Positions 18,163 through 50,199 of a stretch of 51,726 bases of DNA are shown here, piece by piece. The notes beneath the pieces were generated by a model. The model was given only the letters and a program-made list of their open reading frames with translations. It was not told the DNA's origin and ran no database searches. A program made the position numbers and the translations under genes. The DNA is from Atractiella rhizophila (Eukaryota), in contig MU271264.1 in assembly GCA_021432655.1 (NCBI GenBank), positions 62,001-113,726 of the forward strand, given 5' to 3'. How positions within the stretch are numbered: the stretch's first letter is position 1; each line of letters begins with the position of its first letter.

Positions 18163-21100
18163 ATGGCCTCCTACGCTCACCTCCCCTCGCCACTCACACC
18201 CTCCTATCCCTCCTACCCACCCCCACAAGCAGGCATCACAGGTCCCACTGCCTCCCAGCCACACGCCTCCCTCCATCCGCCGTCTCCGCCCCTTCCATCC
18301 CCACTCACCCCCGACTCCCTCCTCCAGTACCTCTCCTCCCACACCACCAGCCCCGTTCCCCTCTCAGCCGTCCATCTCGCCCTCCTGAACCCATACCGTC
18401 TCCCGTCCCCGCAGGCGGTCGAGAACGAGATCAGGAGAGCGGGAAAGACGTGGAGAGAGGTCAAGGGAAGAGGGTGGACCGTCTCTGAGAGAGCGAGGAA
18501 GAATGGGACCGCGAGAGAGATTGGAGTCGAGGATGAGGGTACGGCAGGCGAAATTAGGAGCGTGCCCGATGTCGCGGGTAGAGCTTATTGGTGGATGAAT
18601 AGGACGGGTGAAGACGCTAGCGTCGTTCTTAGGTTGGTTCTTTCTTTCTATTACCTGTTGTCTGGTACTTTGGTGGCTTGTAGCTTGTAATCCTGTAGCC
18701 GAGCGAGGGCTTTATTTCCTGCTCCTCTTCTTTTGAAACTTGGACCAAGAGTTGGATGCTTCAATTTTGAATCATGGTTGTGGGAAATTGTCCGAAAGCC
18801 ACTGTCATGTGTTGGCGTTGGGTTAGGGTATCGTTATATTATTTTTTGTAGAAACCGCACCTCTACTGAAACAGAGAGGAGAGGAACAAACAGGGTTAGA
18901 CCTTGGATGGCATCGCTTCTAATTCGAGAACGCCTTTGGCTGTTCCATGACCGGGGAACTCCCTTGCTATCATGAAAGAGAAACTGACTTCAATGTGTAT
19001 CACAGCGGCGAAACCTCCTCTGGCAAGTCTCACGCGCGCACCCTCTTCCTCCGATCCCTCATCAACTACTCCGCGCCACCACAAGGAAAAAAGGGAGGAA
19101 AGCTGGTGTACCAACTCCCATCCGTCGATTTCATCCTCGACGTCTTCTCCTCCGCCTCCACACTCTCCAACCCCTCCGCCTCCCGATATGGTCGGTACAC
19201 CGAGGTCCAGTTCAACGAAAAAGGCCGACTGTACGGAATGAAGAGTCTCGAGTATTTCCTCGAGAAGAGGAGGATCAGTGAGACCCCGCTCGGAGAGAGG
19301 AACTTTGATGTCTTCTATGCTCTCATCGGTGGAAGCACGGACGAGGAGAGAATGCATCTCGGCATTCCCGCCAACGGGGACTCCAACGCCTTTCGATACC
19401 TCAGCAGGGGTAGTGCTGGAGGCAGATTGGGAGGAGGGACCGCAACGGATCGAGAGGATGTACAAAAGTTCTCCCAATTGAAGCAGGCGTTGAAGAACGT
19501 AGGATTCTCAAAGAAGAACGTAGCCGACATCTTTCGCGTCCTCGCCGCCATCCTCCACCTCGGAAATCTCGACTTTAGGAGCGGAAAGACGGCGGAGACG
19601 GCCGAAGTCTCCAATCGCGACCTCTTGCCTAGGATCGCGGAGTTTTTGGGTATCCGAGACGATGAGTTGGAGGGCTGTCTCGTCAATAAGCTCACGATGA
19701 TTGGAGGGGAGAGGTGTGCGGTGTTGTTGGATGAGGAGGGAGCGGAGAAGAATAGGGACGAGCTCGCGAAGACGCTCTATGGATTGTTGTTCTCTTGGCT
19801 CGTCGAATTCCTCAATCAGAAGTTCTGTAAAGAGGACTTTGCTAACTTCATCGGGGTCGTCGATTTCCCTGGAAACCAGCTCTCTGGAAACGCCGGAGGT
19901 CTGGGCGGGAATGGAAAGCTGGGGAGTATGAGCGGAAGCAGAGGAGGGAGCTTGGAAGAGTTTTGCGTCAATCTGGCCAATGAACGTTTGATGCGCTTCA
20001 CTTTTGATCGCACCTTTGAGAACCCTCTAGTGGACGAATACAAGAAGGACGGAGTGGAAATCGTCCTCGAAAAGCTGGGCACGAACTTGAAACCCAAGTA
20101 CTTCTCGAACGCGGACACCGTCAGACTGCTCACTAACCAGCCTGGAGGACTGGTTCACATCGTTTCGGATCAGTCGACGAGGAAGGGAAAGACGGACTCG
20201 ACGATGTTGAAGGCGATGGGTAAGAGGTGGTCCAATCACCCTAGCTTTGGATGGAGAGAAGGAATCGGAGGCGGAGGTGTGTATTCGGGAAGTTTCGCGG
20301 TCAACCATTGGGATGGACAGGTCAATTATGAGGCGGAAGGATTCTTGGAGAAGAATAGAGAGAAGATAGGAGGCGATTGGGTCACCCTCTTCGCTGGCGT
20401 CCCCAACACTTCGGCTCATAAACCGAAAGCCTCGACTATGAGCGGAATTCAGAAGCCTGGCGCGGATAGGATTGGTGGCTCGGTCTCGCCTTTTGTGAAG
20501 AGCTTGTTCTTGAACGAGAAACTCCTACACACTGAGCTACACCCAAGGAGCGAGGATACGATCGTCGCCGCCCAGCAGAACGTTGGACCAGCTCGTCGTC
20601 CAAGCGTGAGGAAAGGTGTAGGACGTGCTGGGACGATCAAGAAGATGGGAGCCAAGATGGAGACCGTCGGCGAGGATGGAGATGACGCTGACGGCGCCAA
20701 CGTCCCCGATGGCGCTGGGATCTTGGAGACGTACAGCAAGTCGCTGGACATGTTGGTCGAGACCCTGTCTGACACTCGCGCCTACTTCATCTTCTGCTTG
20801 AGACCGAACGACGCGCAACTTCCCGCTCAAGTCGATTCGAGGATCTTGCGTCATCAGATTCGGGCTATGAATTTGTCAGAGATCGGGAATAGGATGAAGG
20901 GGGAGTGGAGCGCGAGTTTGACGCTGGAAGAGTTTTGGGAGAGGTATGGCGATGTTTTGTTTGAGGATGTGGAGGGAGGATCGGAGATGGCGCTTAGTTT
21001 GAGCGGGATGATGATGAAGGATAAGTTGCAGAGGATCAAGGAGTTCTTGGCTTGGGGAGAGGAGGATATGACCATCGGAAGAGAAAAAGTACGCCAACTT

Positions 21101-24100
21101 TCTTCCTTTTGAACCTGGTGCTCATTCTTCATCGATGTAGGTCTATCTCTCAGATATCGCTTTCAGAGAGTTGGAGGATCTTCTCCGAGTGCAGGACGAA
21201 GACGAGATGCGTCGCATCAAGGAGAAGGATAGACAAGACCTAGAGGTTGCCAACGGTCTCCTCCATGTTCCGGTCGATCCTCTCGCCCCGTTCCCCACGT
21301 CTCCCATGGAAGGCTATGGAGACGACTACGGCAAGATGGGCTCGAGCACGAATCTTCCAGCGAACATTGCGCCGATGGGAGTTGCGGACGATTACCCCGA
21401 AGATAGCAAGACGTTCTATTCCACGGACGACTATTTCTCCTCTGCCCGCGCGCTTCGAAAGAATGGAGGTTACGACGATGAAGGCGCATCAGCTATCGGT
21501 TCTGAGCGTTTCAATCCGTCCAGAAATTTGTTTGATGCGGACCGCAAGACGGAGTTTGGGGAGAAGGCGGCTTATGGTTTGGATATGCAGAAGCCGGATG
21601 AGACGGTGGAAGAGATTGGGGATACCTCGGCGCGAAAGAAATGGGTCTTCCTCACCTGGCTGTTGACCTGGTGGATCCCCTCCCCTTTGCTCTCTTGGGT
21701 CGGGCGGATGAAGCGACGAGATGTAAGGATGGCTTGGAGGGAGAAGCTCGCTATCAACATGCTCATCTGGTTGTTGTGTGGAGTCGCTGTCTTCATTATC
21801 GCCTTTTTGGGCAACCTCATCTGTCCCCGAGAATACGTGTACACCCAACAGGAAGTTCGCAATCACGGCTTCACGAACAACGCGGGCAATATGTTGGTAT
21901 CCATCAATGGAGAGGTATTCGATTTGACGGATTTTGCACCTCTGCACTCTCCTGGGAACGATGTCATTCCTACTCTGACAATCCAGAAATGTAAGATTTC
22001 ATGTCATTAGAGAATGTAGCTGACTCGCGCGAGACCAGTCGGTGGAACGGACATATCAGCATTGTTCCCTCTCCAACCAAGTGCACTTTGCAATGGCGTC
22101 GACGGCACCATCAGCCCGTTTGTTGGCCTCGACTACTCTAACGCTTCCACGAACCTTCGTACCTACTCGAAATACCACGACTTCCGCGCCAGCACCAACG
22201 ACTATCGGCCGGATTGGTATTATGAGCAGATGATATTCTTGCGATATAATTACCGTCGTGGATTCGTGGGATACACGAAAGGCGATGTCCACAAACGTCG
22301 CTTGACTTACAACACTGTCATCTATCGAGGTGGTGTCTACGACATGACTGATTACATTAACGCCGGCGGAGGAGTCCCCAACCTTCCCGACAACACCTTG
22401 CCACCTGCTGATGTCAACTACGAGTTTATGGATCCCCTCGTTGTCGCTCTCTTCCAACAAAAGAACGGGCAAGATATTACGAAGGAATTCGACTCGCTTC
22501 CTCTCAGCGCCGATCAAAAACAAATTCAACGCGTCTGCCTTCGAAATCTCTTCTTCATCGGCAAGCAGGACAATCGACGGTCGCCCCAATGCTTGTTCTC
22601 TCAGTACATCCTCTTAGGTCTCAGTATCTTGCTTGCATCTGTCATTGGTTTCAAGTTCTTGGCTGCTCTCCAGTTTGGGCGGTCCAAGCAACCAGAGGAC
22701 CACGAGAAATTCGTTATATGTGCGTGAATCTTCTTGTTGAGGAATACAACTAACCTCCCTGTCAGGCCAAGTCCCATGTTACACGGAAGGGGAGGAGTCG
22801 CTCAGGAAATGTATTGACTCCCTCGCACAGCTCAAGTACGATGACAAGCGCAAGTTATTGTTTATCGTCTGCGACGGCATGATCATCGGTTCTGGAAACG
22901 ATCGACCAACACCTCGCATTGTTCTTGACATCCTCGGTTGTGACCCTACTTTGGACCCCGAACCACTCTCTTTCCTTTCGATCGGCGACGGCGCGAAGCA
23001 GCACAACATGGGCAAGGTGTACTCTGGTCTTCATGAGTCTGCTGGTCATATCGTCCCCTATCTCGTTGTAGTCAAAGTCGGAAAGCCCTCCGAACGATCA
23101 AGACCCGGAAACAGAGGAAAGCGAGACTCGCAAATGCTTGTCATGAGGTTTTTGAACCGAGTGCATTTTGACGCCCCAATGGCTCCTCTCGAACTTGAAA
23201 TTTTCCATCAGATCAAGAACGTCATCGGAGTGAATCCAACCTTTTACGAGGTCCGTTTGTTTCGCTCAAGTTGTATCTTCTGACACCGGAAGTAGTATGT
23301 ACTCCAAGTTGATGCAGACACTGTTGTCGACAAGCTATCCCTCAACCGAATGGTTTCTTCTATGATGCACGACAAAAAAATCATGGGTCTTTGTGGAGAA
23401 ACTTCGCTTGCAAACGCACGGCACTCCTTTACAACAATGATTCAAGTTTATGAGTGGGTTCTTTCATCTTCCGTTGGTGGAACTTCAACTGACAGTTTGA
23501 GTAAAGATACTTCATTTCTCATCATCTCGCGAAGGCATTCGAGAGTTTGTTCGGCTCTGTCACCTGTTTGCCTGGTTGCTTCTCGCTATATCGTATCAGG
23601 ACTTCAGAGAACAAACCGTTGTTGATAAACAATCAGATTGTTCAATTGTACGGCGAGAACCGTGTGGATACATTGCACATGAAGGTAAGAGTTTAACACC
23701 GTCATCAGGATGGCTTCTCACCTTGTTATAGAATCTGTTGCACCTCGGAGAAGATCGTTATCTGACAACCCTTATGTTGAAAGTAACTATTTCGCTTGTC
23801 TGGTTAGTACTCTGCTGACTCTTTTTTCTAAAGCAATTCCCGAAGTACAAGAATATCTTCATTCGTGACGCCTACGCCCAAACTATTGCCCCAGATGAGT
23901 GGAGCGTCCTTTTCTCTCAGCGTCGACGATGGATCAACTCTACCGTCCACAATCTCGCCGAATTGTTGATGATTGAGCGGATGTGCGGTTTTTGTCTCTT
24001 CTCCATGAGATTTGTCGTCTTCCTCGATCTCTTCTCCACCCTGATTGCCCCCGTCAGGTGAGCCTTCAGCTGTCGCTTGATTTTGAATTTAGAGGTAACC

Positions 24101-25380
24101 ATTGCTTCTTTAGCGTTGCCTACATAGTTTACCTGGTCTACCTTGTTGTCGCCCAAGGCGATTCCATCCCGATCACTTCTATCATTCTGTTGGGTGCAGT
24201 TTATGGCCTTCAAGCACTTATCTTTATTTTCCACCGCAAGTTTGAGCACATTGGTAAGCCGCATTCCCCGATAAGACGTAAAACTGAATGATGGCATCAT
24301 AGGTTGGATGATCGTATACATTCTCGCCATCCCGATCTTCAGCTTCTTGCTCCCGCTCCTCAGCTTTTGGCAAATGGACAAGTAAATTGCTTCTTGCACA
24401 GTAAACTCTTGCTGAAATGTGTCGCAGTTTCTCTTGGGGTAACACTCGTGTTGTCTTGGGAGAGAAAGGTCAACGTCTCGTCGTACACGACGAAGGAAAG
24501 TTTGATCCAGCGGAGATTCCTCTGAAGCGCTGGCACGAATACGAAGAGGAACTTTGGGAGCGGGTGAGTCCCTTGTTTAATGCCAAATAATCCTAACATT
24601 GTCCCCTAGGGATCGAATAAGTCGATAGGATCGTTGATTGAGGAGTCGAAACGCAAGGCGATGGGGGATCACTCGCGCGAAGGCTCTCTATATGGCCGTC
24701 AGTCAACACTGGGTGGAGCCTTACACTCTCGGGCACAATCTCGGATGGCAACTCCTATGGGCTTCGACCAGAAATCGCTTCTAGGTGGGGCATACGATCA
24801 GCGTTCCATGATGGGAGGATATGAGCAGGCATCCTATCAACCTTCCATGCACGGATTCGACCAGAAGTCAGCCTACAACATGCCCTATGACCAGAAGTCA
24901 GAATTTGGCGGTCCCGCACGTTCAACTTATTCCGGTTTCATGGGAATGGGTCCTGGGAATGGATTTACACCTTTGAACGGTCCCCCTCCGAGTGCCAGGA
25001 GCTCAGCTTTCTTTGGTGGACCTGTCATGGGCGTGGCACCAACACCTGGTAACATGAGCCAAAGAAGCTCGGCTTTCTTTGGCGGACCCGGTGGGACAGT
25101 TGGAGTTGGAGGATATGGAACAGTGGGACAAGGGAGTCAGTATGATCTTGGAGAGAGCATCATGATGGTGGAGCATGGAGGCGGTTGGGAGGCAGGGGAC
25201 GGATGGCCTTCTGAGGACAAGATGACGAAGGAGATTAGGGATCTCCTTGCCAATGCCGATCTCAATACGATTACGAAGAAGAGCGTCAGGAAGACTTTGG
25301 AGGAGAAATATGGGACTACTCTGCAAGGCGATAGGAAGGAATGGGTGAACAAGGAGGTTGAAAGAGCCCTGGGAGCGTAG
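18163..25380 (+). CDS. Class V chitin synthase with myosin motor-like domain (Mcs1/CsmA type): myosin head, cyt b5-like domains, Chitin_synth_2, DEK_C
   Basis: LLNPY, P-loop [111 protein letters not shown]-like [19 protein letters not shown] at the C-terminus. Confidence 0.96.
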
Positions 25381-34835: not shown

Positions 34836-35021
34836 TAGGACGACCATGAACAAAGAACAATATCTCCAAGCACAAGGAGAATATTTTGATTCAAAGATCA
34901 TTAACCAAGAAAGACAATTTGCACAGCTCGCCAACCAGTTGCCGAAAACAAGCGTTACTCAATCGAAAGATCTAGAGGAGGATTTTTAGGACGGCGGTGG
35001 GTGAAAGAAGTGTCCCCATCT
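34836..35021 (+). mobile_element. Fragment of Ty3/Gypsy gag C-terminus, inverted relative to the large element
   Basis: MNKEQYLQAQGEYFDSKIINQERQFAQLANQLPKTSVTQSKDLEEDF* aligns with MSKEQYLRTQGEYFDTRLLEHERQSAQIADQLPKTSVAQSSDLEEDF encoded on the minus strand near 48160-48305. Confidence 0.88.
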
Positions 35022-35263
35022 TTAGGGGTAGTTAACTAGACATTGCAATGCATGAAGTATTGGTGGAAAGCAATAAGACACAAGAACATACCTAGACACC
35101 GGAAGCCAAGGCTATTAAAAACAGCAGCAGTCCCCAAAGGTCAGGGTCGGCTTTCAACAGAATAAGAATGATCAACAAAACAAGAAACGAAGGAGACTCA
35201 CTTTCCGGTGTCTAGCCTTCTTGTAAGGCAAAGGTAGAGAAACGAGGTACAACTGTGACTGGA

Positions 35264-35776
35264 TGTTAGGGCTGACACTATGTGCGTGTTAGGGCAAACA
35301 CTATGTGCGGTCGCCGATCAGCGATGTGTCTGTAGTGGAGGTAAACCTAAGGGAATAGTATGGCATGAGAAGACTAACCTGTAGTGGAGGTAAACCTAAG
35401 AGAATACTCTGAGGTCACCACCACTACATCTCGATGTATATATACATATGTAAAGGCACTGCCATAAACTGTAACATACGTTGCTTGAAACGTGCAAGAT
35501 AGCTAGATCAGGAAAGTAATAAAGGGAATACTTGGAAATAAGTTATACTGGGTAGTACTAGTGAGAGAGGACAATAAGGCGAAAATGGAGACGGTGCAGA
35601 CCGGCAAAATGTATAACATCTGCTGAGCGACGATTCATGTGAGAAATGGGAAAGCGGCGAACAGCGCAGACGTGTGCAGAGCACCGATGGGTAGGCATGT
35701 GATCTCAAGACACGGTAAAGTGGGTCACATGACTTCGGATGGTGCATTTCGGTAATGTGTAGGGGCAAGCCTGACA
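35264..35776 (-). repeat. 3' LTR region of the Gypsy: 23-bp stub matching the right LTR (35264-35286) plus a complete related LTR (35287-35776)
   Basis: tgttagggctgacactatgtgcg followed by tgttagggcaaacactatgtgcg...gcaagcctgaca. The first ~180 bp resemble the LTR at 49494. TATATATA at 35437-35444 and an internal repeat tgtagtggaggtaaacctaag x2. Confidence 0.85.
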
Positions 35777-36973
35777 ACACCCCCAAATTCCTGACTAGTG
35801 TTCTTGAGTCACGGAATTTTTAGGTTAAGGTTTGCAGTTAGTTGGGGCGAAAATTTTTCCCAGTTCTTCCACCATCTCCCACTCTTCTTTTCCTGCAAAA
35901 ATGTCAACCGACACACAACTCTTCGACTTCGTCCTGGCGAACAAGGATAGAAAGGAGAGCACAGTTTACTGGGATGTGGAGAAGGCGAAAGCGGTGAACT
36001 TTGGGCGATTTGCTGATGTGTTGGAGTGGGGGAAAAGGTGTTATCCTCTGTATATCACGGTTTGCGATGAAGTACAAGCGGAGGTGAGATTTCTTGTCTT
36101 GTATGGTATGGTTGGGTGTGTGTGGTAACCTGTCAGTGGTGGGAAAGGTGCGAACGGTTTATGAGTCTGTGAAAGGGTTTGGTGATGGGCACGTTTTGTC
36201 GTTCCCGCTGCGGATGTCTGTGGAAGACATGCAGGTCTTGCCGGATGAACTTCGGCTTTGGGTGGTGGAACAAGCGGCGCTCGTCGAGGAAGAAGCGGCG
36301 AAATTCGGATTTCAGCCCTCTGAATCGGTGAATGGAAACCCCGTTTTGCGAAGGAAAGAACGAGAACTTTTCTTGTTCGACACGAAAAAGCGTCTGGTGA
36401 AAGAGGAGGAGGAACGAAAACGGGTGGCGCTCGAAAATAAGCGTCGAGCGGCTGAGGAAAATTTACGCGCTCAAAAATCGATTTCAGCGGCGAAGGGGCC
36501 CGAGGTTGGGGTTGTGAGGGCGCTGTCCGACCATCTGGTGACTGCTACTACTTTTGTTTTGCCTGCTGCATTGGGGGACAGAAATCCGTCGCCAGTCACC
36601 GAATTTGTAGTACGCGACGGGAAAGTTCGAATCAGTGACAAGGAATTGGACGCATCGAAATACAGATACTTTTGGCCAGGTACTCGCGAGGCCTATTCCC
36701 ACGCTGCGGCGAACATCAACCTGGGCGAGTTGGACCTCGAATTGGTTATCACGACTCCTCGGGCAAATGCTCACATTCTTCCTACATTGGCAAGCATGGG
36801 GACACAGTGATGTAGTAATTATACCGGAAAAATTCGAGCGGCGCCTGTCAAATCGGCAAAAAAGAAGGCCAAAGCCGACAATGACTCCCAGGTGTGCGAT
36901 TTTTCCGCTGGGCATGTCACAACCGCATTCGGACGGGTCTGCTCACGTTGTCACAGTTCGCGAAAGAGGTGCA

Positions 36974-37146
36974 TGTGAGAGAATGTACCATTCTCCCGTT
37001 CTTTGCACTCTTCGGCGCAGTTACACGTTCATTTGTTTTTCATTCCTATGTCTGCCTACATTACAATATGTACATAGGGTTAGGTTTCTCCGTCCTGATT
37101 CCCCAGCGTTTTCCACCATCTCATACTCCCTGGGGATCAGCTCACA
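36974..37146 (+). repeat. Copia 5' LTR (173 bp)
   Basis: tgtgagagaatgtacc...gatcagctcaca, near-identical to the 3' LTR apart from a 59-bp indel. Confidence 0.95.
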
Positions 37147-37259
37147 TAGTAGCGAGAGCCATCTGTTAGCCACAAATATCTCCTCGATTGTTCAGTATTG
37201 GGTTTAACGCCGCCCATTGTGAATTCTTGTAACAACACTACGAAGTGTACTGATTGTAC

Positions 37260-40200
37260 ATGTCTTCTCGATACCTCACCCCATTCGACGACAGAGATCC
37301 TCCTCCACATACACCAGACAACCCTACTAGACAATTTTCTCCTGCCCTATCAAATACGACCGAGTCTTTAATCCCTTCGTCTAACACCTCATCACCTCCA
37401 CACTCGTTTCGGGCAATCGATATGGAATCTTCGGCTGGGACGACGGGACTTATTATTGATGGAGTGCCTTCTATTCTAAGGGTGGGTTTTACCAGTTGGT
37501 GGGCGGCGATGAGAATGGGTCTCCAGGTCCGTATGGTTTACCGCTATGCATTGGACGAGCTGGTTGGGACAGAGGACTTTCGCCGTACTCAACCTTTGCG
37601 TAACACTTTCAGCAATTTGTCACAATGGGAGGACGCTATGGAATGTTGGGAAGCTGGGAACGCCAAGGCTGTGGCTATAGTCCTTGCGAATTTGGACCTC
37701 ACGGCTGCGAATCAGCTTTCTGAAGAAGAAAAGCATGTTGCTAGCTCCATCGTCGCAAGGATGCGGGCACTATACAGCACAACGCAGGCCGTTATGGGTC
37801 ACACGATTATAGCCAAATTGATCACATTTTATCAAAGTGGATCTGGATGCACGTCCTTGGCGCAGTTCATCACCAAATGGAACGCGATTTATGCGGAACT
37901 ACTCTCTGCAGACTCTGCTTACACTCTGTCCGATGCAGTCCGCTTCCTCCTCTTCGTTAACCTCCTTGAACCTGAATGGAGGAAGTTTGCACTCAATCCA
38001 AAGAATGTCACCAGGAATGATCTAAACGATCTTTTTCAGAAACTGAAAGCGGAAGATGTAACGAACACTGTTCTAGAGCATGGAGACCCTGCTATCCCCA
38101 TGCATTTTTAGAGAGACACAAGTGTATATGCTGTATTTCCTTCTCAGTCTCGATCTTTGTCAATGCCACCTTCCTCCCAGCCGATACGTTTTTCCCCATC
38201 CTCTGCTCGTCATTTTCCACCTGCGTCATCTGCAACACTGCGAAGCCAGACTCCCACATTGAGGCACCCATCTACACCTCCTTATCGACCCTCCTTGGCA
38301 ACTACTTCACTACCACGTATCCTCGTTTCTACCCCCCCAGTCGCTCCGATGTATAACCGACCTTGGTCGGTTCGGCCTCCTACTTTGCGACACTTTGGGA
38401 AGACGTATCATCTCGCAAGGCGAGTTTACGGTCATCCAGGGACCCGTGTATTTGGCCGCCGGGCGTGGGACTACGACGGGATTGACTCCTGGCCAGGATC
38501 TATCTCGCCGTCGGGTCATTTTATTGTACAGCCAAATCAATGTGTATACTGCCTTGGTATAGGACACATATCTTCCAGTTGCCGAGTACCAGTTATACAG
38601 CGAGAGAAAACCGGTGATGCTGCCTTCGAGGCGATGGGTATTACTCTTCAACCTAACTCCTCCGGTCGATCTCAATATGTCCACCCTTCGGTGTTGATTG
38701 CCAGCCCGGCTTTTGCATCTCCAAACGAACTCAATAGTGACGGCATTCCCCGCGCGGCCAACGACATTTTTAGCCCTGGACCTGATGGGCGGTACGATGG
38801 AAACCTTGATGGAAAGATCATCCACAATGGTGACCTGTCCTACTGGCCATCCTACGTCCAGGTTGCTTATGAACAACGACGCTGGCCTGTTCCTCTCCCG
38901 GCTCAGCATCCAGACCTTGACATCCACCCACTCTTTCTTCCACTATTCTCCCATGACAACCCAGTGCCTTCAAATGATCCTCATTTTCACACCCATGTAC
39001 AGTATGCCCCGAATGGCGACATGTCTTTTGACAGGGCATTGCAAGAAATTTCAGACCAGGAATACCTCAATTTTATGGAAGAACACGATACAACCCCGGG
39101 AAAGATCCTGCCCTCCACTTCTCCCTCTGCACTCCTTGCTTCTACTAATAATTCTCTTCTGCCTAGTTTAACAATTTCTACTCCATCCGTATATGATCAG
39201 CCGAAATTTTCTTCTAATTTGTCTTGGATTCGAAATTGCCTTCCTCTTACCATATCAAAATTTGTTCCTTTCAACCTTCCTCAAAATTTTCTTCGTTTTC
39301 TTGAATCCCCTGCTTCAATTGCTGAACGTTTCCTACCTGTTGACTATGCGGCGAATGTTGCTGCTCTCCATTCCACCACACTTTCCAACCTCGATTCGAC
39401 AACTCGATCAAACCCCTTTACGAGTTACGACGCCGTAATTCCTCCTCCGGCATTCTGCTTCCTCACACATGATCGACCGGATGTTCCTTCCGTGTCTGTG
39501 CTCTGCTACGTTGATTCTGCAGCAACAGTACATATGTCGGGCTCTACTGCGCTGTTCGACGATCTTCGACCCATCAACCCACCAGTCTTTGTGGGCGGAG
39601 CGTTTGGGAGTGGAGGATTTGCAACCCACGTTGGCAGGGTCTGTCCACTCCTTGAGGATCAAAGCGGAACATTGGTTTCCCAAGCAGATCTCGGCACAAG
39701 CCTCTACGTCCCTGGGCTTGGTGCCAAGTTGGTGTCCCATTTCGACCTCATGAGGCGTGGGATCCGGTTCACCAACGACCGCGAACACCTCTTCTTTCGT
39801 AGAGAAGATGGTCGACACTTCGGTATGGCGAAGTTTGGCCAATCACAAATAGAACTCCAGGCAAGTTCCCTCTCCCCAACCCAACCTACAGAAAACATAG
39901 CTCATCCAAGCCCGTCTGCTTTTGCAGTTACGTCTTCCAAAATGTGGCATTCACGATTAGGCCACATAGGCACTACATGCTGGCGGGAGCTATGTACGCG
40001 GAGGTGGGTTACGGGTTTTGATTGCAATCTACGTGCTTTTGAAACTTGTACTGTTTGTGCGGCCGGGAAATCGAAAACAAGACCGAATCGACGGACCACA
40101 AAGAAGTCTTTGTTCACCAAGGGTGAACGGATTGACTGTGATTTGTGGGGCCTTGCACCTATTCCTGCTTTGCAGAGTGGTTTCAGATATGGGCTTGGAA

Positions 40201-43041
40201 TCGTTGAGGAATCTACTGCCATGATATGGTGGATTCCTCTACGACTTAAGTCGGATGCTGCTGCGGCGTTGAGAGTGTGGATTATGGAGACAGAACGTCG
40301 TCACAATGTCAAGGTAAAAGTTTTGAGAAGCGATAATGGTGGGGAGTTTAAGTCTATGGTTTTCACAAGCTTCATTAAGAAATCGGGTATTGTTCATGAA
40401 ACATCCATTCCTTACGTCCACAATCAGATGGGTTTTATGGAGCGTCGCTGGTACACTATTTTCGATGTAGCACGCACTATTTTAATCTGGGTTACCTTTG
40501 TCATTTTGGGAAAAAGCTGTACAATTCGCTGTCTACACTTTAAACCGCCTACCTACATTTTCTCATGGTGTTTGGAAATGTCCTTTAGCACTTTGGTCAG
40601 GGGATGCACCTGATCTCTCTTCTCTTCACACATTTGGTTGTTTGGCTATTATTCACATTCCGAAGGAGCGGCAGATCTCCAAACTTCATCCGAGAGGGGC
40701 AAGGGGATATTTCGTGGGGTATTTGCCAGGTGCCAAGGGCTGGTTGTTCTGGGTACCGTCACAACGGAGATTCATCAAGGCGAAAGATGTAAAATGGTTT
40801 GAAGATGAATTTTATCGGGATCGCCCTCAAGAGGATATGGCTAGGTTGAGTGACTGGACTCTTGATGAATTCATGCCTTCAGATTTTCACAACCTCGCTG
40901 ACGAAGTACTGATCAACATCCCTGGCCCTGAAGAAATCATACCTCCCGTCGTACCTACGCTTTCGAATACACAGGATACACAAACGAATTCGGCAACACC
41001 GGTTATACCGACAGTTTCGACCACATTGCCAGCTCCCTCTGACCCTCTGCTGTTGGCACCTCCTGCACCTACTCCTCTGATCTCTGGCGATGGAGGTGGG
41101 GACGGATTACTGCATGGTGAAGCTGAGGAACAGCCTGCTCCGCCACGCACTAGGCAAGTCCCTAAGCGCCGTCCATATCACGTCCCTGCGCCATACCCTC
41201 CACATAACCAGCGCCCAAAACGGAATATTCCTCGGTTTGATTATACTGATCAGTTAAAAGGGAAACCTTCAGATAAACGACTAGACCAGCCACAGCACTC
41301 CGTGTTCTATTTCGATGCTAACTTTAGGTCTGCCACCCAAGACTTCATTCCTTCTTTAGCTAGCAGGAAAATGTCGTCCATGTTACGGTCCTCCCTACAG
41401 TCTTCGCTTACTGGTGACGGTGAGGATGTACGACGATGGCAGGTATTTACTGCCAACACAAAATGGACAGGCAGTCTTGATGAACCCACTTTCAGACAGG
41501 CGCTCACAGGTCCGGATGCTGAACATTGGTGGGCGGCCATCTTAGCTGAAATAAACGCACTGCAGTCGATGGGGACGTGGGATGCGGAGCCAGTACCTTT
41601 GCCTCCTGGCAAGAAAGCAGTAGGTTGTAAATGGGTATTGCTGATAAAAAGGGATCTAGATGGTAGTGTCATTAAATACAAGGCACAGTTGGTTGCTCGA
41701 GGTGATACGCAGACAGAGGGTGTTGATTTTGATGAAACATATGCTCCTACGGTGCGTATGGCTTCTGTCCGTGCGATTCTCTCCCTTGCTGCCTCGACCC
41801 GCATGAAGCTGGGACAGTTCGACGTGAGCAATGCCTTTCTCAATGGCGTTCTCAATGAGGAGGTCTATCTCCGCCAGCCACAGGGCTTTGTGGACCGTGA
41901 CCATCCGACTCATATGTACAGATTACGAAAAACTCTATACGGCCTCCGGCAAGCAGGCAAAGGTTGGAATGATGCTGCTCATACTTTCTTTATAGGCCAC
42001 GGTTTTACTCGGTTGGATGCAGACCATGGAGTGTACATCAAGAGTGGGTTAGAAGGTCTTACTATTGTTGCTATCCACGTCGACGATGGCCTGGTGGCTG
42101 CCTCTACACACGCGCTTATAGAACACCTATACACAGCCCTCCGGTCTCAGTTCAACATCACCACATCACCAGTAGGGAATTTTCTAAGGATGAGGATAAC
42201 GTGGGACGAGGATCAAAGTCGCATAACGCTGGACCAGGAAAGTTACATCCGTAAATGCATTGACAGATACTTACAGGACATGCACCCGGTTAAGACACCG
42301 TGTGAAGTCAATGAGAAGGTCTCCGATACCTGGTCTCCTCAAAATGAAGGCGATAGGGAGTATATGAAGAGGATTCCTTATCGTGAAGCAGTGGGAGCTC
42401 TGATTTATGCTGCAGTCAATACCCGCCCGGACATAGCATTTGCGGTTAACCGAGCTGCACGATACAATGCGAACCCTGGACGTTGACATTGGTCCATGGT
42501 ACAACGCATTTTTCGATATCTTCTGGGGACGATGGGGTTTAAGCTGATATGGGATGCTACAGGGAGCACCACATTAGACGGATTTTCTGACTCTGATCAT
42601 GCTGCTGACGTGGATACCAGACGCTCCATCTCTGGTGTTATCTTTCGATTAGGATGTTCGGCCATTTCATGGATCTTGAAGATGCAGCCTACTGTCGCCA
42701 TTTCCTCAACTGAAGCGGAGTACATCGCCCTGTCGACTGCAGCAAGGGAGGCGATTTGGCTACGAGCACTCCTCGCTCAACTGGGTTTTGCTCAACAAGG
42801 GATCACGCTAATCCGGGGTGATAACCAGGGGTCTCTTTTACTTGCGAGACACCCATCTAACCATAGCAGGACCAAGCACGTTGACGTGCACTATCACTTT
42901 ACACGCGAAAAGGTAGCGGATGGGGACATTGTTCTCAAATGGATCCCGACACAAGAAATGGTTGCCGATGTTCTTACCAAAGGTCTAGGACACCTGCAAC
43001 ACTCAAGACTGTGTTCTGAGATGGGCCTTCTCTCATTATGA
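37260..43041 (+). pseudogene. Copia gag-pol polyprotein (gag, Zn knuckle, protease, integrase, RT, RNase H)
   Basis: CVYCLGIGHISSSC, YVDSAAT, WHSRLGH..CTVCAAGK, DCDLWG/RSDNGGEF/ERR, IHVDDGLV, GFSDSDHA..ISSTEAEY..RTKHVDVHYH. In-frame stops at 38109 and 42484 and a frameshift near 40490. Confidence 0.93.
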
Positions 43042-43193
43042 TCGATTGGTCTGACTCAAATTTTTTTTTTCTTTCTCTCTCTCTTGACAGTTGTTTTCCC
43101 TTCATGTATTGGCCTAGTCTTTATTCTGCCTCGTAATTTTGCCAACATACATATCTTTTGTTTTTGTTCACACACGCCTTGAGTGAGGGGGGG

Positions 43194-43425
43194 TGTGAGA
43201 GAATGTACCATTCTCCCATTCTTTGCACTCTTCGGCGCGGTTACACGTTCATTTGTTTTTCATTCCTATGTCTGCCTACATTACAATATGTACATAGGGT
43301 TAGGTTTCTCCGTCCTGATTCCCCAGCGTTTTCTACCATCTCATACTCGCTGGGGATTAGGTACGTGTCATCATTGCATGTTGAGCGTTTTCCACCATCT
43401 CATACTCGCTGAGGATCAGCTCACA
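43194..43425 (+). repeat. Copia 3' LTR (232 bp)
   Basis: Contains two copies of agcgttttcYaccatctcatactcgctgRggat and is followed by the TSD gtgca. Confidence 0.95.
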
Positions 43426-44868
43426 GTGCAAGGTTTTGCCTCTGGGATATTTGCGAGAGCTATCGATGTTAGTCGTGATGTCGCCTGTGTTCCACTCTAA
43501 ACGGATCGGCGATGGGAGAAAATGTCCGTCGGCTTTCGCTGAGAGCAACTATGAGAATCTATCGGACGTCGACGAAGACTCTCCCGCGCATTCGATGCTG
43601 AGCGCCGCTTGGTTGTACTCCGAAGCGTTCAGCATGAATTTCGCACAAACGATGCTCGCGGCCGCCAGGTTGAATGCTCAAGCGGCGGCGGACGCTCTTA
43701 AGGCCGCCGAGTTACAAATGGAATTGTATAGAAGGAGGCAGGATGATTGTGCTGCGGAGGATAGGGCTAGCGAGGGTTCTGTGCTGGAAGGTGTGGTAGC
43801 CGATGTGACTGGTAGGGTAAGTCTATCCGTTTTCGGCGATCTGTCTGACTATCTAGATGTTGTTTAGGCATCGTAGGCCTAACCCATCGCCAGCTGTACA
43901 AAAGTCGTCGCATTGGCGAAATTGAGTTCCGACTCGGCGACTTAAAACCTTCGTTGGCTCAGGAGGCCGATGACAATTCGAATTATGATGTGTATTCTGT
44001 TTCTGTTTCGAGTAGTAGCGATAGTGAGGAATCCGTCCGGAGCGATGATTTTGAACTTTGAAATGTATGTTTTGTGTCTCCGTATTAGCGGCGAATTGCC
44101 AGGCGGCGACAAGTGTAAATCGTGTCATGGTGGCATAAGGTATTGTGGTGAATGGGGAGAACAATGGCAAAGTGGGTGATGCAGGACTCACACTCCCCTG
44201 TCTAGGGGAGGACCCTCAGGCGTTCCTCCCACTAGCTATCCAAGCTTATTATGGAGCTCGCAACCAAATAGGCCTGGGCCACACGCTCGTGGACACAATG
44301 CGCAGTATAATGTGTCGCCAGTTTGCGTGCTTGTTGCCGGTTCGTCTTCTTTGTGGGATAGTGTGTTGTCGAGCGAACAAAGATGGGAAAACCAAAGGAT
44401 AAAAAGCAAAAATTAGAACATCATAAACATCAAAACCAAAACAGGGCGTGAGATGAAAAGGAGCGTTGTGTACCTCGCAATTGAGGGATTTTCGGGATTT
44501 GACCGGTGTTGTTTTGGTGCAATAAGCAACCGTTTTGTGAAAATGGGGCGAGTAACTCACCGACAAACCGGTCGCCGATCTGTCCGTTGAGGAACAGACC
44601 GGCGCCTCGCTTAGACCTATGCTCAACAATGTGACTAGGGATTCACCCAGCGAGGCGTGTAGAGGAGTAGGCCCCCTTAATGTGAGGGGGAGGGGACCTC
44701 ACAATTGAGGACAATTTTCGTAAATGCGACATTGGTGATGGCGCGAGAACGCAATGAGCATTCGTCTTTGACAGGCGACGAATGGACTCACCACCGACTA
44801 AGTTGCCTTGACCTAAGTATCAAAGACTAGGATTTCACCCACCAAGGCATATAGGGATGTTGGACCCC

Positions 44869-47800
44869 TTAAAGTGAGGAAGACCCCTGAGCACGTTTTC
44901 GTCGAGGGTTACGAGAACGTGTATTTGGGCGATTTTTTGCGGAGTTCGGCATGGAGCCTGGACTATCTGCAAGGGGGTGTGTATTGTGATAGTCTTTTAT
45001 GGCATCTTGGGAATTCTCCTGATCTACAATGCTGATCCATTCATCCTCAGATGGTGAATACCCTTTATATCGAACACGATATTTGAAAACTCTATTTCGG
45101 GTGCCGAACCATTTTCCATCAACAATTTTTTCCACTTCCCATTCTTCAATCCCACTCACCAATTCCGGAGGTGGTTTGGGTAACTGGACTCTGCCAGGGA
45201 TGTCGTCTTCATTGACTTTTCATATTAGGCTCACATGGAATACTGGATGTATCTTCCATGAGGATGGCAATTCGAGTTTGAGGTTGAGGGGACCCAAAAC
45301 TTGCAGAACACGAAAGGGGCCGTGCCATTTGTCATCCAACTTTTTGACAGGTCTCGTCGATTTGATGTCTCCCGTGCTCAACCAGACGAAATCACCGACG
45401 TGATATTCAGGCGCCAGTTCGCATTTTCTGTCATAATGTTTTGCCATGAGATCTGCTGCTTGCTCAAGTGCCGCTTGTGCTTCCTGGTCGGCGATTTGCA
45501 TCTTTTCAACAATTGCGCCACTGCAGGAACATCTTCATTGGAGATGGGTTCAAAGGCCATGCGGGGATGTTGACTGCAATCGAGCGAAAATGGAGTTACG
45601 CCTGTCGCTGAACTGACGTGATTGTTGAGCGCAAATTCTGCGTTGGGAAGTCCTTCCACCCAATTATCCTGAAGGTGATTGCAGAAAATACGCAAATATT
45701 GTTCAACCTCTTAGTTCATACGTTCAGTCTGACTGACCATCACTTTGTGGGTGATAGGCTGTCAATGGTGAACCTTTGATACCTAATAGGCGAAAAAGCG
45801 CCGATGTGAATTTGGACACAAACTCTTTGCCTCGATCAAAAATTGCGACATCGAAAAAGTCCATGTAGCTTCCATACGTGATCGCGAAAAAGTCTTGCAA
45901 GGCCTTCTGCATCCATCGTCGAATGGGTGGGGATGAGATGAGTGTGTTTTGAGAGTCTGTCCATGACGAAAATCGTGTCAAACCCCCTAGATTCTGGGAG
46001 CGGTCCAACCAAGTCCATGCTGACAATTTGCCATCGACGCATGGGAATGTCATTTGGTTGCAAAAACCCGACAGGTGGGGAAGGAAAATTTTTCGTTCTG
46101 TGGCAAGTGTGACAGGCGCCGACATAGCGGCGAACATAATGTGTCAAACCTGGCCACCAGTAGTACCTTTTTACGAGAGCTGTCGTCGATTTTACGCCTG
46201 GATGACCAGCGATTTGCGAATCATGCAGGTCTTGCAAATCGAGCGGCGAATTTCGTCATCGCGGGAATATAGAGTTTTGGGCGAAAATAGACTGCACCAG
46301 CGACTTCTTGCCACTCCCATCGGCGAATTGCGTCGACTGGTTCGTCTAGGATCTCTCTCAAGGCCTTGACTACTTGTTCTTCCCGTTCAGGTTTACCTCC
46401 ACTACAGACGCGTCGCCCATCGGCGACTGTGCATAGTGTTTGCCCTAACAGTTGTCTCCATTCTTGCAGTCTACACATAATCGCGAGCATTTCTTTGTCG
46501 TAGGTGTCATAGTTCCTCTGGGCAGCGTCCAGCGATTTTGACACGAAACCGAGAGGATGAAACTTCCCATCAGGCTTCATGTGCGACAAAACGGCACCTG
46601 TGGCGAAATTTGACGTGTCGACTTCGAGCAAGAACCGTCCTATTTGTTCGGGATGCGCCAAAACGGGCGCCGAAGTCATGAGCTGTTTCAAAGCGGCTAA
46701 CGAACATGGCTGATCTACCCCCCAGACCAAGGAACCTCCATTTTCGTCAGTTCATATAAAGGTCGTGCAATGTGACTGAATCTGTCGCAAAAGCGGCAAT
46801 AGAAATTAGCGAAACCAAGGAACATTTGGACTTGCTTCATGTTTTTTGGTTCCGGCCAATCCATCACTCCTGCAACTTTTACTGGATCTGGTTCGATCCC
46901 TCTGCTGGAAATGATCAAGCCTAGATACTCCACCTCTTCTTGACACCAAACGCATTTCTGCAAATTTACGTAAAGCCCATTTTGGCGCAAAATTTAACAA
47001 ACTTGTCGAACACGTTCCCAATGTTCTTCTTCAGTCTCTGTCGCAATGAGGATATCATCAATGTACATGAAGATGAACGCAGCGGCTATCATCACGCGAA
47101 AAATAGAGTTCAGGAAAGCCTGAAAAGTCGCCGGTGAGTTGCAGAGACCGAAATACATCGCCAATGGTTCGAAAAGTCCGCGATTTGTGCGAAATGTCAC
47201 TTTGTGCTCGTCTCCTTTGATGCGAACATTGTTGAAACCCTTTCTCAGGTCAATCTTGCTAAAAAATATCTTACCAGAGACCATGGAGAAAAGGTCGGCT
47301 TGGATAGGGAGTGGAGTTTTGTCCTTGATTGTGGCTTCATTCAGCTTGTGATAGTCGAAAAGGGGACGAAGTTCCGGTGAGTCCTTTTTGTGTGTAAAAA
47401 AGACGGAAGCATCATGTTCACCTGTGCATGGATGTATACGACCGGTGTTCAGTTCAGCGTCAATGAATTGGTTGAGCGCCGCTTGTTCGTCTCTTTTCAA
47501 GGGGTAGACGGGACCAGCATATGGTTGAGCTTCTGGTGTGAGGTTGATAGGACACATCAACCGCGTTGCAACTGGTGGGGCAACAAGAGAACTCAACTTT
47601 CCCTGATGCCCAGTTAATCTCTAGGTTGTGTTGTCTTAGCCAGTCATGACCCAGAATCATGTCAACTGTCCCCAACTCCGCCACAGCGAATTGCCAAACT
47701 TCGTGATGGGTGGCGATCGAAATGGGTAAATAAGCGACAGAATGGATGGAACCCCCCTGATTGAGGGATCCGTCGATATTGTAAACGGGCACTGGGGAAG

Positions 47801-47975
47801 GGAGTTGAGTGGCGGGTAGGTTGCATTCGGAAATGAGTTTTGGAGAAATAAAGGAAGTGGTTGCCCCACTGCCGACGAGCGCACCGATGTGGCGTGTCAG
47901 CGATGGGAATGTGGGTGATGGAAAGCGGTTCTGAGGTTCGTTTTCGAACTGACTAGGGATGCAGTAATCAAACAT
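44869..47975 (-). pseudogene. Gypsy pol: protease, RT, RNase H, integrase, chromodomain (multiple frameshifts and deletions)
   Basis: ALVGSGAT (catalytic D>G), ILGHDWL, KIDLRKGFNNVRI, YIDDILI, VDTSNFATGAVL, HDSQIAGHPG..CHTC, AYHPQSDGQ, KWHGPF, HPVFHVSL, chromodomain EEWEVEKIVD..YRVRYKGYSPSEDEW. Confidence 0.93.
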
Positions 47976-47997
47976 AAGTGCACTTTGTCGTACATTT

Positions 47998-49453
47998 TTA
48001 CGACATCAGCGCAGCTTTGTCTCCAAGATGGAAAACGAATTTTGGAAATGGGGAGTCATGTTCGGGAGAAGGGAAATCTGCGCAAAGCGGCACTTTGTTA
48101 GACGTGATTAAAATGAATTGCAAGTCAGAGACAGGGACACTCCTTTCGCCCATCGCCGTCTCAAAATCCTCCTCCAGATCTGATGATTGAGCGACGCTCG
48201 TTTTCGGCAACTGGTCGGCGATTTGCGCAGATTGTCGTTCATGTTCTAAGAGACGAGTATCGAAATATTCTCCTTGTGTACGAAGGTATTGCTCTTTGCT
48301 CATGGACATCTTGCATTCCTTCTCTCTGTGTCCGATCTTTTGGCATCTTCGACAACGAGGCGGTCTGAACTTCGCTGCGTCCACCTCCATATCGTCCGGG
48401 TCTTTAGCTTTGTGAGGTTGCGAAGCGGCGATGGGCGACAAAGCGGCGCTCGGTGGGTACTGAGGGGGTCCGTTGTTGTCCTTCTGTTTCGTCGATTTTG
48501 AGTGATCTTTCTTTGCTGAATGTGTATTTTGGGTTCCACTCGTCGCCGATGAGATGCCCCGAAAGAAGCTGGAATGCGCAAATTCTTCTGCGTCGATTCG
48601 CCACATTTTTTCCTTCCACTCTTCAAGGGACTTGGGGAAATCACCTTGTGTCACTTTAAGGTGCACGGCAGGATTGAGGCCCCGTTTGAAGAAAAATGTC
48701 AGCGCCTCATCATCAAAGTCTGTCTGATTTGCCAACTCCTCAAACTTGATGATGTAGGACTCTAGGTTGCCCTTCTGTTGCAGGGAAGACAGTTTCGTTT
48801 GCGCAATAAGTTTGTGGTCAGTTTTGCAAAAACGCGATCTGAACTCTGACAGAAATTGCTCCCACGAAATCTGTTCCTCATTTTTGACAAGTCGGCACAG
48901 TATCCCAGCGGTGAATTTTTCAGCGTCTCCTTCTTTCATATACGATAGAGTAAATAAGATTTTCGACTTTTCTGAAGGGAACTGTCCTGGGATGGCAGAT
49001 GTGTAGACGTAAATTTCGCGAAGAAAGGTCGGCGCCGAGCTAGGCACTCCTTTGAAGATAGAGGGTGTGGCAAGTCTGATTCCTGCATAAGGCGAAACTT
49101 GTGCACTTTGAGGTATAGAGGGAGGAGAGTAAGTTTGGGGTATTGGGTCTGTTCGCGATAAAAAGGGGGAGGTGGTTCCACTGTCTCTAGGAGGAGGCAG
49201 TCTGGAGTCCAATAATTGTAAAATTCGGTCGTTTGTGTTCTGGACGTCGGACCTCAGTTGGGCAATTTCGTGCACATTTTGGGAGGTTTGTGCGTTTTGT
49301 TGGTTGAAACTTGCTATGAGGTCTTGTTCGATTTTTTTGAACTGCTTTTCAGTTGTGAGGTGTAGAGTTTGGAACATCCTTTCTAAGTGATGGATGCATT
49401 TTTTCGCTCGTCGGCGATTCACGCCTTTCCATATCTCCCTAAACCTCCGACAT
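47998..49453 (-). pseudogene. Gypsy gag (retrotransposon gag domain + CCHC zinc knuckle)
   Basis: PSIFKG..FLREI..KILFTLSYMKEGDA..WEQFLSEF..Q..YIIKFEELA..FFKRGLN, DDMEVDA, CRRCQKIGHREKEC. The likely ATG at 49453 is out of frame with the long ORF. Confidence 0.9.
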
Positions 49454-49493
49454 TTTTTAAGTTTGGTTTTGAAAATGATGGAAAGTATTCTTC

Positions 49494-49953
49494 TGTTAGG
49501 GCTGACACTATGTGTGGTCGCCGATGAGCGATGCGTCCGTAGTGGAGATAAACCTAAGTGCATGATATGACATGAAGACTAACCTGTAGTGGACATAAAC
49601 CTAAGAGAATACTCTAAGGTCACCTCTACTACTCTCTGATCTATATATACGAGCGGAATAACACTGCCACAGAGCGTAGAGGAGAACAGATGAAACATGT
49701 AAGAGAACTAAAAGGGGAAGTGACAGTGGGATTATGCGGAGTTAATAAGAGGAGGATAGGCACAATTGGGCTAAGTGGTGGTGTAGGTGCAAATGGGCGA
49801 ACGGGCGAACAGGCGCGGATGTGCACTGTGTGTAAATAGGCGACGGGAGACGCAGAGTGGCGAAAGGGCGCCGATTCACAGGGAACACAAATGGGCGATA
49901 GTAGACGCAATCCGGCGAACGGGCGCCGATTTGCGTAAGATGCAAACCTGACA
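49494..49953 (-). repeat. Gypsy 5' LTR (460 bp)
   Basis: tgttagggctgac...gcaaacctgaca, TATATATA at 49642-49649, followed by the TSD ctgga. Lies immediately upstream of gag on the minus strand. Confidence 0.9.
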
Positions 49954-50199
49954 CTGGACTGAAGGAAACCTGTAAGGAGGGCAGCAACAGGGACACAGTA
50001 ACTGTACCGTGAACGCAAACCAAGAGAAGGAAAAAGCCACACAAGAGGGTTTTGAACTGGTGGTTGTTCGAAAAGGACAAATGAGAAAAGCAGACGAGAA
50101 AGGTAGAAAGATAGAATCAGGACGGACTGACTCATGGCTCACATCTTACATTTTCTATCTAGCCTACTGCCTCCGATTCGTCCACTCTGCATCACCTTC

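Follow-up and report, generated by a model that had tools for sequence, protein, structure and literature searches.

Why should the spacer of a retrotransposon carry a gene that runs against the direction of the element and contains an intron? The question is raised by a 51,726-nucleotide stretch of DNA from the root fungus Atractiella rhizophila (GenBank assembly GCA_021432655.1, contig MU271264.1, positions 62,001 to 113,726 of the forward strand), which is called the window here and whose numbering is used throughout. The window holds, on its minus strand, a Gypsy long terminal repeat (LTR) retrotransposon with a chromodomain. The gene runs on the plus strand, opposite to gag-pol, and is placed in the spacer that separates the pol stop (44869) from the polypurine tract (PPT) and 3' LTR (35777). 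The explanation favored here, with a probability of roughly 0.6, is that one chromodomain Gypsy lineage of A. rhizophila carries an antisense accessory gene of about 465-470 residues with at least one spliceosomal intron, that the gene has spread with the element, and that its product is likely a nuclear regulator. An antisense, intron-containing gene in the pol-3' LTR spacer of a chromodomain Gypsy element was the central proposal of a first-pass annotation of this DNA, and the layout agrees with it, as the retrotransposon domains are on the minus strand and the gene is on the plus strand. The parts of the gene and of its surroundings are as follows.

35901..36083, plus strand: exon 1, 61 codons, starting with an ATG at 35901 (context CAAAAATGTC); the same as residues 1-61 of the annotated protein P0001.
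36084..36147, plus strand: intron 1, 64 nt, GTGAGA...AAG; from the sequence and the gene models P0001 and P0005.
36148..36807, plus strand: first part of exon 2, 220 codons, with the long charged helix; from the translation and P0001.
36808..36810, plus strand: premature TGA at codon 282, where the paralogues have R.
36811..36973, plus strand: exon 2 continued, with the Cys cluster and the basic KSAKKKAK, 54 codons to the Copia site; the TAT at 36820-36822 corresponds to C in the paralogues.
36974..43425, plus strand: nested Copia element; recognized by its LTRs, target site duplication and domains.
43431..43816, plus strand: exon 2 resumed, junction codon A/AG followed by 128 codons that include the Ala-rich helix; in the aligned part 80% identical to P0005 and 89% identical to P0006.
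43817..43876, plus strand: uncertain 3' end, with a candidate intron 2 at 43817-43867 (GTAAGT...TAG).
43877..44868, no strand assigned: rest of the pol-3' LTR spacer, with no supported coding frame among its open reading frames (ORFs) and Pfam matches.

Once the Copia element and one copy of its GTGCA target site duplication (TSD) are removed, the LTR and the pol stop are 2634 nt apart, in line with the 2.6 kb of extra sequence that the first-pass annotation had described. It had also claimed that this removal fuses 36973 to 43431 in frame. The junction codon reads A/AG, P0005 and P0006 are contiguous at this point, and contigs with the empty site are found, all of which bear the claim out. 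When intron 1 is spliced, the Copia-free frame runs for 465 codons to ...VTGR (43816) with one stop only, the TGA at 36808; the earlier reconstruction, with its second intron, comes to 467 codons with the same sole stop. The charged helix, the KSAKKKAK, the Cys cluster and the Ala-rich helix that had been quoted from it are all present in the translation. G occupies 40% of the first codon positions in the 465-codon frame, which is a coding-type bias. The longest single frame, at 240 codons, is longer than every frame in 300 shuffles of the 2634-nt spacer (maximum 231, mean 129).

It is the paralogous proteins, beyond these shuffle statistics, that settle the coding reality of the frame. When the middle part of the conceptual protein was used as a query, with X at the stop, 4 of 1355 candidates matched and all are hypothetical proteins of A. 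rhizophila. One of them, P0001 (an annotated hypothetical protein of 281 aa), is 100% identical to the window and consists of exon 1 and the part of exon 2 before the TGA, so intron 1 is the intron used in the public annotation. The gene had been described as hidden, but not all of it is, as its first 281 codons are P0001. Where the window reads TQ-stop-CSNYTG, P0002 and P0004 read TQRCSNCTG. The two repairs that had been predicted for the window, TGA to CGA (R) and TAT to TGT (C), are thus the residues read in other copies, namely in P0002, P0004 and P0006. The C-terminal piece of the conceptual protein matched none of 64 candidates among proteins of 70-224 residues and 2 of 1366 among longer proteins. 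These two, P0005 (569 aa) and P0006 (515 aa), are both from A. rhizophila, and in each a single chain contains both the N-terminal and the C-terminal half; P0006 reads ...GRVCSRCHSSRKRCEVLPLGYLRELSMLVVM... unbroken across the site of the window's Copia. The conceptual protein of the window agrees with P0006 at 339 of 438 aligned positions (53 gap positions, three gaps in the P0006 model) and with P0005 at 333 of 470. About 23 residues of P0005 are read in the other frame, and this copy is therefore taken to be frameshifted. For the tails of P0005 and P0006, the window has no corresponding sequence.

There are six annotated paralogues, and they lie on six different contigs. An exhaustive phmmer search of 1.84 billion representative proteins gave only 3 matches, all from this family, and found no host gene outside the repeat family. 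Metagenome contigs were scanned in two ways: a peptide-pattern scan gave 600 stretches that fitted a pattern and none that was confirmed, and a degenerate DNA pattern for KYRYFWPGTREAY gave 0 matches. By sequence comparison, the gene is real, multi-copy and intron-containing, and it is species-restricted among the matches found.

How is the message of this gene put together? Intron 1 has an in-frame TAA and shifts the frame, so splicing would be needed to join the two conserved exons; exon 1 shows 87% identity in 231 aligned paralogue cells. Many other GT..AG pairs, 19 of them listed, also join exon 1 to exon 2 in frame. The pair at 36084-36147 is preferred because it has the best donor and because its junction is used in gene models, as QAE/VRT in P0001 and as the equivalent QEE/VRT in P0005. 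Two introns had been proposed in the first-pass annotation. The first is supported by these two models, whereas the second is optional, as the unspliced frame simply stops at the TAG that begins at 43865. Candidate intron 2 is canonical, and splicing it would give AS and a stop at 43874-43876, for a total of 467 codons; without it the frame goes on for 16 codons to the TAG at 43865-43867. The P0005 model uses the same donor after VTGR and then continues into sequence that is not in the window, and other copies have G at 43819, which changes the donor to GTGAGT (contigs of two public runs, X1 and X2). Another 3' end may be formed by a donor six bases upstream (GTAGGG) with the same acceptor, which opens a 63-codon acidic, Ser-rich frame at 43870-44058 with its stop at 44059-44061; this frame has no Pfam match and is covered by no paralogue protein. 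The 3' end of the gene is uncertain on this evidence.

The element that surrounds the gene is laid out like a chromovirus, and its parts are listed here.

35264..49953, minus strand: chromodomain Gypsy element (chromovirus-type) with the nested Copia; recognized by its LTR ends, TSD and Pfam domains.
35264..35777, minus strand: Gypsy 3' LTR, 514 nt; begins TGTTGTCAGG at 35777 and finishes ...CCCTAACA at 35264.
35778..35790, minus strand: polypurine-tract-like AGGAATTTGGGGG, read from the sequence, directly upstream of the 3' LTR.
44869..45219, minus strand: C-terminal chromodomain piece of pol (Pfam Chromo, E 2.5e-7), with the stop at 44869.
49494..49953, minus strand: Gypsy 5' LTR, 460 nt; from LTR comparison.

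The element is bounded by a 5-bp TSD at 35259-35263 and 49954-49958, which reads TCCAG on the minus strand. The same strand has gag at 49578-47998 (Retrotrans_gag, Ty3_capsid), followed by RVP_2, RVT_1, RT_RNaseH_2, Integrase_H2C2, SH3_Tf2-1 and then the C-terminal Chromo domain. The domain order of gag, aspartic protease, reverse transcriptase (RT), RNase H, integrase and chromodomain, together with the LTRs and TSD, is that of chromovirus-type Ty3/Gypsy elements, an assignment made from layout and not from an RT phylogeny.

Does the gene travel with this element? Two paralogous contig records keep the PPT and the first LTR bases beside the 5' end of the gene. One covers 35766-36235 with 56 other letters and 5 gaps, the other 35766-36563 with 105 other letters and 8 gaps, and they are 85-88% identical to the window. 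Residues 1-38 of P0006 map to 35585-35728, inside the 3' LTR. At least three further copies (the two contigs and this gene model) share the gene-LTR junction, and because they keep the same LTR edge at the 5' end of the gene, it is concluded that the gene travels with the element. On the pol side of the gene, other copies give continuous multi-contig cover and no bridging record. Across the region there are 4-14 distinct contigs per variant site (runs X1 and X2). The presence of the intron at the same exon junction in two paralogous models fits inheritance through retrotransposition.

The copy in the window is a pseudogene inside a dead element. The lesions of the gene are the TGA at codon 282, the Cys-to-Tyr change and the later insertion of Copia. 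The Gypsy copy itself is old and dead, judging from its pol, which is broken in at least six places, and from its LTRs, which are only 79-86% alike. The pol breaks were counted from ORF coordinates and domain matches and fall within about 3.1 kb, where domains are in different frames or are split by in-frame stops. The 3' and 5' LTRs are identical at 335 of 422 aligned positions (79%) over their whole lengths and 86% identical over 160 nt by blastn in the TATA/R/U5 part; good alignment is limited to this part, at 35287-35460. The U5 end of the 3' LTR (35264-35309) contains a 23-nt tandem duplication, CGCACATAGTGT..GCCCTAACA, that is not in the 5' LTR. A 62-nt inverted copy (89%) of the LTR U5 end at 35287-35348 is found inside pol at 46389-46450, near the RNase H/integrase boundary, and may be one of the lesions that break pol. 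At 44633-44687 there is a 55-nt copy (78%) of the pol 3' end and stop (44825-44879), 192 nt downstream of the original; a loose end at 44803 in other copies suggests that this duplication is missing there. Just outside the Gypsy element, 173 nt at 34844-35016 are 79% identical, inverted, to gag at about 48134-48305, and are a fragment of a related element beside the insertion.

The Copia element has LTRs at 36974-37146 (173 nt) and 43194-43425 (232 nt) that are 97% identical over 167 nt, and its GTGCA TSD is found at 36969-36973 and 43426-43430. The domains gag_pre-integrs, rve and RVT_2 lie between the LTRs. At the DNA level, contigs of the runs X1 and X2 contain the joints 36968->43426 (one contig per run), 36969->43431 and 36971->43431, which represent other copies with the Copia site empty. 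The 3' LTR of Copia contains a 59-nt internal duplication (43325-43425) that is not in its 5' LTR, and the Copia frame has in-frame stops at 38109-38111 and 42484-42486 and one frameshift near 40486-40613.

The protein begins with a poorly predicted part, followed by a long charged helix, a lysine patch within a cluster of six Cys residues and, at the C terminus, an Ala-rich helix. An intact paralogue has its Cys residues spaced as C-x2-C-x24-C-x14-C-x2-C-x6-C, and the lysine patch falls between Cys2 and Cys3. A further Cys in the window, in GDGRKCPS, corresponds to R in the two paralogues that extend over it. The first-pass annotation had seen in the cluster a kinship to the fungal Zn2Cys6 domain (PF00172). 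The protein does share with this family a C-x2-C-x6-C sub-motif with basic residues (CSRCHSSRKRC). However, no second C-x2-C-x6-8-C half follows, the other three Cys residues lie 17-52 residues upstream, and neither the window pieces nor P0005 and P0006 match Zn_clus or any other Pfam family that would place them there at E<=1. The protein is not assigned to Zn2Cys6, given the missing second half and the unmatched Pfam model, and the proposed kinship is not supported. The two CxxC pairs could still bind zinc in a manner different from that of Zn2Cys6 proteins. An env-like sense ORF3 was also considered and rejected, as the gene is antisense and its sole hydrophobic run, by inspection, is about 11 residues (LSMLVVMSPVF).

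Searches for a domain or fold gave little. P0005 and P0006 have no Pfam family at E<=1, and the window pieces gave only sub-threshold matches to DUF6720 (E 0.031) and Haem_bd (E 0.082) and none to Transposase_28/TRP28 (PF04195), SMC or Zn_clus. Sequence searches of the PDB with P0006 and with a profile of the six paralogues returned 0 matches at E<=1 and at E<=10. The AlphaFold2 model of P0006 (6 sequences) has a mean predicted local distance difference test score (pLDDT) of 34.2 and a predicted template modeling score (pTM) of 0.21, with a second long helix predicted at residues 388-435. For P0001 the mean pLDDT is 44.4 and the pTM 0.35, and only the helix at 126-177 is moderately confident (pLDDT 66-79 by 10-residue blocks). 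In the ESM Atlas, the model of P0006 itself has a pLDDT of 0.37, there were no usable feature matches, and the structure rows all have a template modeling (TM) score <0.3.

What could such a gene do for the element? An antisense intron cannot be spliced from the genomic RNA and hence survives reverse transcription. The genomic RNA of the element would never present intron 1 in a spliceable orientation, and the intron would be retained through retrotransposition because the gene is antisense to that RNA. It would be copied faithfully in each round, and the gene would spread with the element. An antisense promoter within or beside U3 of the 3' LTR may give rise to the mRNA of the gene. As there are only 124 nt between the LTR and the ATG, the promoter is expected to lie in or overlap U3. 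A scan with bacterial promoter and terminator models, which are unsuited to a fungus, found nothing. From the basic patch, the Cys cluster and the long helices, the most likely role of the product is that of a nuclear, nucleic-acid- or chromatin-binding factor that would modulate the element's own expression or silencing. In that role it would resemble the products of the antisense accessory genes in plant Grande and Retand elements, in Boty of Botrytis (brtn) and in HTLV (HBZ).

HBZ of human T-cell leukemia virus type 1 (HTLV-1) is a basic leucine zipper (bZIP) protein of a vertebrate retrovirus whose gene is antisense, spliced and transcribed from the 3' LTR. It is tempting to see in the present gene a fungal counterpart, that is, an orphan zinc-binding, coiled-coil nuclear regulator encoded by a spliced antisense message from a 3' LTR promoter, which would control transcription or shield the element from silencing. 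This more specific proposal is tentative and rather unlikely to hold in full. In both, a retroelement has an antisense gene at its 3' end, with a 3' LTR promoter (here proposed) and a basic, helical nuclear protein (here predicted). They differ in that HBZ is a bZIP protein of a vertebrate retrovirus, whereas the present protein has no bZIP shown and its transcription from the LTR and its function are only proposed. If the proposal is true, the antisense intron would be direct proof of the inheritance of the gene through RNA-mediated copying. A comparison of antisense retroelement genes with HBZ has been made before, in passages of PMC7264820 and PMC11963269.

Is it necessary to suppose that the gene serves the element at all? 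Host or orphan DNA could have been captured once into the spacer, by recombination or by insertion, and could have been hitch-hiking since then without any service, its frame being open since the copies are young. Several observations that weigh against an accessory role are just what such passive cargo would leave behind. All copies seen are damaged or have gaps in their models: the window copy has its lesions, P0005 has its stretch in the other frame, and P0002, P0004 and P0006 have missing segments. The summed contig depth is 3-8 thousand in the spacer and 21-27 thousand in pol, so that the region has about one quarter of the pol depth, a ratio that is not a copy number; the LTR depth, at 27-226 thousand, is far above that of the spacer. 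One contig joins the LTR edge at 35776 straight to 44923, without the region. From this contig and the low spacer depth it follows that many related elements are without the region or have diverged beyond 80%, which suggests that the region is peculiar to a sub-lineage or changes faster than pol does. No known domain turned up, and Pfam, the PDB, the ESM Atlas and AlphaFold2 together offer no domain, fold or homologue that would indicate a function. To these the cargo explanation can add that residue identity among the paralogues is flat, at 80-91% in every region, as would be expected without domain-specific constraint. An accessory role is further burdened by the Cys4-Cys6 part, which is present in only two sequences, and by the intron, the start site and the antisense promoter, which are read from gene models and sequence. 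Passive cargo nevertheless seems doubtful as the full account. It has to explain why no homologue was found outside the repeat family among the 1.84 billion representatives and why the gene is antisense, when transduced genes are usually sense-oriented (a passage of PMC7264820). The gene has one stop in 465 codons, compared with at least six breaks in about 3.1 kb of pol in the same copy. The residue identity of 80-91% also does not fall below the 85-88% that the paralogous contigs show in their bases, which is more than neutral decay would leave, although proteins and contigs are unpaired in this comparison. Of 112 distinct residue changes among the paralogues, 106 need one base change. Contigs with listed variants number 4-5 in the intron, 11-13 at the exon positions 36014 and 36337 and 6 at the exon position 36071. 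The identity values, the open frame and the intron and exon variants give weak hints of selection. The differences between copies at 35200-46000 (X1 and X2) are mostly transitions, with about 200-250 each of A>G, C>T, G>A and T>C and about 20-55 per transversion, and the inferred residue changes comprise 72 transitions and 34 transversions.

Two other explanations do without an accessory protein of the Gypsy element. The spacer could hold an unrelated repeat, for instance another mobile element that has a gene of its own, nested within the Gypsy and with copies elsewhere that are independent of it. The spacer depth, which is unlike that of both pol and LTR, would be understandable in this case, and so would the unmapped tails of P0005 and P0006. 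But no terminal repeats or target duplication bound the spacer, it contains no transposase, RT or other mobile-element domain, and three other copies keep the same PPT/LTR junction, which together make a nested repeat improbable. It could also be that the antisense RNA matters and not the protein. A plus-strand RNA from the 3' LTR would pair with the 3' part of the genomic RNA and act in RNA silencing or in copy-number control, and the frame would be incidental. The whole gene lies within the 3' untranslated part of the sense transcript; an effect at the RNA level is a live alternative because the mRNA would, over its full length, be the complement of the genomic RNA's 3' part, and PMC7264820 has a passage on antisense non-coding transcripts of retroelements. 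Were the RNA non-coding, a frame of 465 codons with its strong bias to G in first position would not have been kept, and neither would the same frame across at least six paralogues. As a replacement for the protein this explanation is very improbable, but protein and RNA readings are not exclusive. An accessory gene of a Gypsy lineage thus remains the preferred reading.

Antisense accessory genes of LTR retrotransposons have been seen repeatedly, and we know of none with a known function. Zhao et al. (2011, Virology) reportedly described one of them, brtn, as an antisense extra gene of Boty-like Gypsy elements in Botrytis cinerea and Sclerotinia. The gene in the window has the position, the orientation and the multiple copies of the antisense additional ORFs with pol on one side and the 3' LTR on the other (the aORF-3R class). 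It is an unrelated further case of a known class and not a new kind of system, because antisense extra ORFs at this position have been described in plants and in Boty of Botrytis. The plant examples named in a passage of PMC7264820 are maize Grande, rice RIRE2, Silene Retand and Phaseolus PvRetro13, and outside plants it names Boty of Botrytis and Sclerotinia. Such ORFs occur in all Retand clusters, mostly with a TRP28 domain (a passage of PMC11963269). The gag-pol of Boty has a chromodomain (PMC4227169, in part), and its gene brtn is cited in passages of PMC8365987 and PMC4227169.

The closest parallel is therefore brtn in its setting, which is likewise a fungal chromodomain Gypsy element with an additional antisense gene between pol and the 3' LTR (passages of PMC4227169 and PMC7264820). 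The hosts differ, as brtn is from an ascomycete and the present gene is from a basidiomycete of the Pucciniomycotina. No sequence relation was detected, since the searches gave no Botrytis protein; brtn is not in the latest B05.10 annotation according to a passage of PMC8365987 and may be missing from the collections searched. The plant elements Grande, RIRE2 and Retand agree with the present one in position and orientation within Ty3/Gypsy and in encoding orphan or poorly understood proteins, for which nuclear localization or DNA binding has been proposed, and Grande has its own promoter upstream of the gene (passages of PMC7264820 and PMC11963269). In contrast, Retand belongs to a non-chromovirus lineage (a passage of PMC11963269), the host here is fungal, and no match to TRP28 (PF04195) or SMC is found here. 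An intron has to be removed here to join the exons, while the word intron is absent from the reviews PMC7264820 and PMC11963269.

Nearly all examples in the searchable literature are from plants and one fungal case is named, Boty brtn; among the fungal cases in the searchable full-text literature, a limited collection, there is no basidiomycete example. A tractable system would come from a second fungal example that is unrelated to the first and has a culturable basidiomycete as host, with a chromodomain element around it, an intron that marks the strand history of the gene and a family with a small number of copies. With it one could ask if these genes work for the element, for example in nuclear import, transcription control or anti-silencing, or are cargo. 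The annotated hypothetical protein BT69DRAFT_1295380 and five paralogues are retrotransposon-borne, which bears on gene counts and on claims of orphan genes.

Elsewhere in the window, at 18923-25380 on the plus strand, Myosin_head (E 8e-80), Cyt-b5, Chitin_synth_2 (E 8.5e-70) and DEK_C are found in successive frames, which is the layout of an intron-split host gene for a myosin-motor chitin synthase. An open frame on the minus strand at 16412-17518 matches DUF2417 (E 8e-13).

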